This document shows positions 1 to 727 of a stretch of 727 bases of DNA, piece by piece (within the stretch, counting starts at the first letter, position 1; every line of letters starts with the position of its first letter). The stretch lies in NCBI RefSeq assembly GCF_003334405.1, contig NZ_QOWM01000055.1. One strand, 5' to 3'. The notes under the pieces were generated by a model that worked only from the letters and a program-made list of their open reading frames with translations, was not told the DNA's origin and did not search any database. The position numbers and the translations under genes are program-made. The DNA comes from Escherichia coli (GTDB lineage: Bacteria > Pseudomonadota > Gammaproteobacteria > Enterobacterales > Enterobacteriaceae).

Positions 1-684
1 ATCACAACTGATGCGATGGGTTGCCAGAAAGATATTGCAGAGAAGATACAAAAACAGGGAGGTGATTATTTATTCGCTGTAAAAGGAAACCAGGGGCGGC
101 TTAATAAAGCCTTTGAGGAAAAATTTCCGCTGAAAGAATTAAATAATCCAGAGCATGACAGTTACGCAATGAGTGAAAAGAGTCACGGCAGAGAAGAAAT
201 CCGTCTTCATATTGTTTGCGATGTCCCTGATGAACTTATTGATTTCACGTTTGAATGGAAAGGGCTGAAGAAATTATGCGTGGCAGTCTCCTTTCGGTCA
301 ATAATAGCAGAACAAAAGAAAGAGCCAGAAATGACGGTCAGATATTATATCAGTTCTGCTGATTTAACCGCAGAAAAGTTCGCCACAGCAATCCGAAACC
401 ACTGGCACGTGGAGAATAAGCTGCACTGGCGTCTGGACGTGGTAATGAATGAAGACGACTGCAAAATAAGAAGAGGAAACGCCGCAGAATTATTTTCAGG
501 GATACGGCACATCGCTATTAATATTTTAACGAATGATAAGGTATTCAAGGCAGGGTTAAGACGTAAGATGCGAAAAGCAGCCATGGATAGAAACTATCTC
601 GCGTCAGTCCTTGCGGGAGCGGGCTTTCGTAATCTTTCCCTGCTTTTTGTACTAAATAATTCGCATTTTATGTTTAAAAATTGA
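1..684 (+). CDS. ISAs1-family (H-repeat-associated) DDE transposase, C-terminal portion; 5'-partial, start codon upstream of window
   Basis: Seen in sequence: frame 1 is open from base 1 (ITTDA precedes the first ATG at 16) to TGA at 682..684, so the ORF runs off the 5' edge. The ATG at 16 is probably an internal Met, since the conserved 'TTDAMGCQ' block straddles it. Established knowledge, from memory: '[15 protein letters not shown]' (second catalytic Asp, codon 10..12) and '[44 protein letters not shown]' (catalytic Glu, codon 412..414) are characteristic of ISAs1/H-rpt transposases (DDE_Tnp_1-type). Full-length homologues are about 375-380 aa, so roughly 150 N-terminal residues are missing from the window. 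Confidence 0.85.
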
Positions 685-727
685 GATATTCCTTATTACC
701 TGAAGCTGTTTTTTATTGCTTATACAT
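1..727 (+). mobile_element. Fragment of an ISAs1-family insertion sequence (H-repeat-like element); right boundary not determinable from this window
   Basis: Inference from the transposase CDS filling 1..684. Elements of this family are about 1.2-1.4 kb with the transposase occupying most of the length, so the right terminal inverted repeat should lie within roughly 50-150 bp of the stop, either in 685..727 or just past the window. The left end is off-window, so the inverted repeat cannot be paired or located. Confidence 0.65.

Follow-up and report, generated by a model that had tools for sequence, protein, structure and literature searches.

A 727-bp Escherichia coli contig that very probably represents a collapsed join between tandem H-repeat (ISEc1) copies of the rhsC locus

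The stretch of DNA that was analyzed (hereafter: the window) is the entire 727-bp contig QOWM01000055.1 of the Escherichia coli draft assembly GCA_003334405.1. As the window equals the whole contig, the record offers no flanking sequence and the context of the locus was derived from relatives; a literature search on the assembly accession yielded no match. In frame +1 the window contains an open reading frame that is open at the 5' edge and runs from base 1 to a stop codon at 682-684, with a translation of 227 residues. At NCBI the product is named 'ISAs1 family transposase, partial [Escherichia coli]' (RCQ29563.1 / WP_114481673.1). The following features were recognized:

1-632, plus strand: codons 169-378 of 378 (the 3' 60%) of a ybfL-type transposase gene of ISEc1 (H-repeat), ISAs1 family; the 5' side is cut by the contig end.
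10-12, plus strand: GAT codon, the D of ITTDAMG, presumed second Asp of the DDE triad, within the DDE_Tnp_1 match.
412-414, plus strand: GAG codon, the E of HWHVEN, taken to be the catalytic Glu of the DDE triad; both the DDE_Tnp_1 and the NF033564 match cover it.
615-617, plus strand: GGG where all relatives examined have a run of GGGG; a one-base deletion that shifts the frame four codons before the normal stop.
623-642, plus strand: right-hand terminal inverted repeat, GCTTTCGTAATCTTTCCCTG, with which the element closes at 642; this repeat contains the canonical stop.
633-684, plus strand: read-through extension of the open reading frame, 17 extra codons plus a stop, which crosses the inverted repeat and the join and lies outside the canonical gene.
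643-727, plus strand: left-end leader of the H-repeat copy that follows in tandem (ybfD type), element positions ~25-109 according to the yhhI alignment.

The family assignment of the gene was confirmed by profile searches. The window fragment scored 201.3 bits against the NCBIfam ISAs1 equivalog model NF033564 (curated cut-off: 70 bits), with residues 1-176 covering positions 141-314 of the 314 in the model, and it matched no other IS family model at E ≤ 0.001. The intact homologue of strain CT29 reached 418 bits on the same model, while the next-best models (IS1380 and IS4) remained far under their own cut-offs. The Pfam domain DDE_Tnp_1 (PF01609) was recovered with E = 6.6e-16. An earlier reading, made from the sequence without database searches, had called the gene an ISAs1-family (H-rpt) transposase and had proposed a Pfam search of the translation as a check; both profile matches agree with that call and neither placed the protein in a different family. 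The product is identical in 206 of 206 residues (169-374 of 378) to YbfL of K-12 and to the intact CT29 copy WP_000420797.1. From our knowledge of the family motifs we take the Asp encoded at 10-12 and the Glu encoded at 412-414 to be members of the DDE triad; the first Asp (AIDGK motif) lies upstream of the window and is present in the identical relatives. A sequence search of the PDB with the intact homologue retrieved no relative for a structural check of this assignment.

The element is multi-copy: a megablast search of 5,426 complete E. coli genomes returned matches to the window in 5,343 of them. The median genome has 5 such places, and 28 of the places were on plasmids. The best DNA identity was 99.7%, and the best places corresponded to the ybfL pseudogene (H-rptC2) in the rhsC locus. 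The matching DNA carries the RefSeq label 'ISAs1 family' or 'ISAs1-like element ISEc1 family' transposase. Membership of the ISEc1/H-repeat group follows from the identity to ISEc1-annotated copies (99.3-99.7%) together with the linkage to rhs genes in relatives (rhsC material in 7 of 8, see below). The closest described counterpart is the stretch formed by ybfL and its join to ybfD in K-12 MG1655 (b0705/b0706), from which the window differs, in an alignment of 728 positions, by one substitution and one gap. The substitution (G at position 264 of the window, A in the K-12-derived ybfL) is synonymous; the gap corresponds to the one G fewer at 615-617 and gives the window its frameshifted C-terminus. 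The two do not differ in the right inverted repeat or in the join to the following copy, and the 5' 40% of the gene, which in K-12 ybfL includes a stop at codon 18, lies outside the window.

The end of the element was located at position 642. Read as its reverse complement, the right repeat starts with CAGGGAAAGAT, as does the left-end repeat in the ybfL and the yhhI copy; right and left repeats share their first 11 bases in the ybfL copy and 14 of 20 bases in yhhI. The latter gene (K-12 b3484, in the RhsB element) belongs to a solo copy of the same element and defines the full unit with both inverted repeats: it is bounded by CAGGGAAAGATCATCAAAAG (from position 9235 of the K-12 yhhI locus, L005) and, in reverse complement, CAGGGCAAGATTACGAAAGC (to L005 10525), which makes a unit of 1,291 bp. 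Its DNA identity to the window is 97.2% over positions 1-642, with two amino-acid differences in the shared part. In a BLAST comparison, window positions 1-642 aligned to the 3' part of the yhhI element, ending at L005 10525, and the similarity stopped at 642, whereas positions 643-727 aligned at 98.8% to L005 9259-9343, upstream of the yhhI start codon. In the solo yhhI copy the left repeat is complete and an unrelated flank (yhhJ) comes after the element; in the window another copy of the element comes after the right repeat. Base 643 corresponds to position 25 of this next unit, which lacks its initial 24 bp and with them the left inverted repeat. The sequence of the join is identical in K-12 and CT29, and in relatives the ATG of the next transposase gene is found 36 nt beyond the window end (for ET12567, locus L001: CDS start at 10764, window end at 10728).

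At the level of the element, ISAs1 members are recognized by short terminal inverted repeats that bound a single-ORF element of 1.2-1.5 kb. This feature is present here: short terminal inverted repeats surround the 1,291-bp unit with its one ORF of 378 codons, the right repeat being contained in the window and the left repeat being seen in the relatives. ISAs1-family elements are expected to make a target-site duplication, and old copies may lose such duplications through recombination. In K-12 no target-site duplication was found at the two flank pairs inspected, namely those of the solo yhhI copy (L005 9215-9235 and 10525-10560) and those of the outer ends of the rhsC array (locus L006, 11290-11303 and ~13928-13945).

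Tandem arrangements with this join were found at rhsC. Since the downstream unit lacks its first 24 bp, the period of the array is 1,267 bp and not 1,291 bp. In CT29 (NZ_CP032073.1, L004 8230-14056) the array comprises five tandem units with CDS starts at 8230, 9497, 10764, 12031 and 13298 and with four identical joins; three of these units encode the identical intact transposase WP_000420797.1. The K-12 array consists of a 5' fragment (ybfQ), followed by ybfL, which has a complete left repeat and an internal stop at codon 18, upstream of the part covered by the window, and then by ybfD. A side observation on the latter gene (H-rptC3, L006 13597-13928) is that it carries an internal deletion equivalent to window positions 266-576 (311 bp), which leads to the truncated YbfD of 253 residues. 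Three tandem H-rpt units at RhsC were reportedly described by the laboratory of C. W. Hill in the early 1990s. Copy number thus varies between strains, from ~2.3 units in K-12 (all defective) to 5 in CT29, and matches that cross the join occur in ~1,401 of the 5,426 complete genomes.

These observations suggest how the array may have been formed. An intact unit measures 1,291 bp. Its terminal inverted repeats, which are imperfect, begin with CAGGGAAAGAT, and its one DDE transposase of 378 residues is predicted to bind the element ends and to cut and join DNA. The downstream units lack their left end, which makes independent transposition, one unit at a time, an unlikely origin of the array. 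The size of the array most probably changes through unequal homologous recombination between the 1,267-bp units, the most economical account of the differences in copy number.

We then inspected the neighbourhood of the closest matches in eight complete E. coli genomes. The join was located just upstream of ybfD-ybgA-phr in all eight, and seven of them have, within ~1-9 kb upstream, complete or partial rhsC material together with ybfC and an orphan C-terminal fragment of rhs. The gene order kdp-ybfA-rhsC-ybfB-(orphan rhs core/tip, ybfO)-ybfC-ybfQ-ybfL-ybfD-ybgA-phr-dtpD was shared by four genomes (MG1655, ET12567, WP2-S18-ESBL-08 and BE2-5). The other four have retained the ybfL-ybfD-ybgA-phr end and differ upstream: i) KL53 is without an intact rhsC and ybfB, its ybfQ is unannotated, and a DUF6531 fragment and an rhs core pseudogene precede ybfC; ii) in CT29 rhsC is split by IS1 and a full-length copy occupies the place of ybfQ; iii) in 214-4 additional immunity-type genes separate ybfC from the array, and ybfQ is unannotated; and iv) in 720632 an IS1-bounded segment is found in place of rhsC and its neighbours, with ybfQ-ybfL-ybfD-ybgA retained. 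The prediction made from the sequence that a Rhs polymorphic-toxin locus would lie nearby is thus borne out at the orthologous site by the rhsC material upstream in 7 of the 8 relatives, and flanks made up of housekeeping genes only were not encountered in the relatives examined. On the right-hand side the relatives show another copy of the same IS, followed by the housekeeping genes ybgA and phr.

Some of the individual loci showed further particularities. The extra genes of 214-4 (NZ_CP025840.1, L008 4417-5798) encode an NTF2-fold immunity protein, a DUF6258 protein and a small RHS fragment, and look like additional orphan toxin-tip and immunity modules. In 720632 (NZ_CP025842.1, L009 1-5322) rhsC, ybfB, ybfO and ybfC are absent and the IS1A-bounded segment that abuts ybfQ contains a CRISPR repeat array, a gene for an FGGY kinase and a gene for an MFS transporter; this arrangement resembles the outcome of a rearrangement of the Rhs locus by IS1. 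In the laboratory strain ET12567 the 5' part of ybfL carries an insertion of an IS10-type element (annotated as ISVsa5, IS4 family; L001 8461-9669).

Taken together, the window is in all probability a collapsed-repeat contig that contains the 3' 642 bp of one H-repeat/ISEc1 copy, linked head-to-tail to the first 85 retained bases of the next copy, and that corresponds to the ybfL/ybfD join at the right edge of the RhsC element. That the copy of the source strain itself lies at rhsC we infer from the signature of the join and from the eight inspected relatives. The multi-copy nature of the element, with its plasmid-borne places, and the lack of a unique flank on the contig could also fit an origin from an H-repeat copy elsewhere, such as RhsB/yhhI, RhsE, an O-antigen cluster or a plasmid, rather than from the rhsC array. 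Such an origin is very unlikely: the solo yhhI copy has no more than 97.2% identity and past 642 continues into an unrelated flank, whereas the join in the window is identical to that between ybfL and ybfD and was found upstream of ybfD-ybgA in all eight inspected genomes.

The 3' end of the open reading frame deserves separate attention. In a pairwise alignment with the K-12-derived ybfL, the relatives read GCG GGG AGC GGG CTT TCG TAA (...AGSGLS followed by the stop) and the window reads GCG GGA GCG GGC TTT CGT AAT... One G is missing from the run at 615-617, by which the frame has moved past the canonical TAA at 630-632, now out of frame, and the apparent end of the open reading frame at 684 is therefore an artefact. 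The last four residues of the protein are replaced and 17 are added. The boundaries 1-684 that the sequence-only reading had given to the open reading frame hold in so far as no stop interrupts the frame before 682-684; the canonical gene covers 1-632 only, and the end at 684 results from the frameshift.

The deletion appears to be private to this contig. It was absent from the 5,426 complete E. coli genomes, in which the best matches to the whole window (99.7%) were all gapped at this site, and a 106-base probe over the deletion site gave best matches of 99.1% in which 107 bases of the record were aligned to the 106 bases of the query. The exact window protein was found on one 727-bp contig among ~15 billion proteins, and in its 90% cluster each of the eight members sampled has ...SGLS as its C-terminus. 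The loss of one base is either late decay of a pseudogene or a sequencing, homopolymer or assembly error in a collapsed repeat. We considered whether the reading frame of 1-684 could be a real variant transposase with a genuine, possibly functional, longer C-terminus, as might be supposed from its uninterrupted state in the deposited sequence and from its annotation by NCBI as the partial protein WP_114481673.1. This is very improbable, given that the extension is due to a single G lost from a homopolymer run, that it is encoded by the inverted repeat and the non-coding leader of the next copy, that no complete E. coli genome has the deletion, that the protein is confined to this single contig while the sampled cluster members end in SGLS, and that the orthologous ybfL of K-12 is already a pseudogene through its stop at codon 18.

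With respect to the join, it is conceivable that it is functional in its own right, as a hybrid promoter or transposase-binding site through which the downstream copy is expressed, or as a hotspot of array expansion (cf. the five units in CT29) that modulates recombination at the Rhs locus; we regard this as extremely unlikely. A scan for promoters did not recover a plus-strand promoter-like site at the join. In the whole window one promoter-like site was found (minus strand, 301-273), where 1.6 were expected by chance, and the consensus scan detected no terminator-like sites. Internal repeats within the window were limited to short pairs at chance level. Rfam returned 0 matches on both strands (E ≤ 1) and PADLOC returned 0 matches for the main ORF and for the ORFs at 345-584 (minus strand), 255-362 (plus strand) and 173-268 (plus strand). 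An RHS/YD-repeat core, a C-terminal toxin tip or an immunity protein was not found in the window, in which the family matches were to transposase models only and PADLOC found none; the Rhs genes are neighbours in the relatives and lie outside the window. The statement made beforehand that the transposase is the only supported gene, and that the window encodes no defence or toxin system, could thus be upheld. The ORF at 345-584 (minus strand) consists of 79 codons antisense to the transposase gene and showed no PADLOC match or supporting signal; antisense ORFs of this length over coding regions are common by chance and it is probably a chance ORF. A second function in or over the transposase gene (an antisense gene, a small RNA or a defence component), to which this ORF and the minus-strand promoter-like site might point, is hardly credible in view of the empty PADLOC and Rfam results, small ORFs included, and of a number of promoter-like sites at or below chance.

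The element is a member of the ISAs1 family. Like ISAs1 of Aeromonas salmonicida and IS1358 of Vibrio cholerae, it has a single ORF that encodes a DDE transposase, and short terminal inverted repeats; unlike these, the H-repeat copies of E. coli are mostly degenerate, form a tandem array and have truncated left ends. IS1358 flanks the wbe/wbf O-antigen clusters of V. cholerae and there marks the edge of a recombining accessory cluster (PMC9256687). For E. coli, the genome paper of strain W noted that the H-rpt regions are listed in ISfinder, yet that transposition has not been observed (PMC3032704), and in a study of the K-12 mobilome clear circular forms of ISAs1 were not found and rare circles were only speculated upon (bioRxiv 10.1101/2024.07.17.603846).

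The H-repeat/ISEc1 copies and their tandem order at RhsC are already known and have been part of the annotation of E. coli K-12 for decades; the private one-base deletion is the sole departure from that picture. In practical terms the value of the analysis is one of triage: the window is a repeat-collapse contig without cargo and without readable flanks, in which the end of an apparent ORF of 228 codons stems from a single-base indel. The content at the level of a system, i.e. the Rhs toxin and immunity modules, sits upstream in the relatives and has already been well described. Within this context the H-repeat at RhsC is an old, fixed and mostly degenerate part of the RhsC element and not a fresh insertion.
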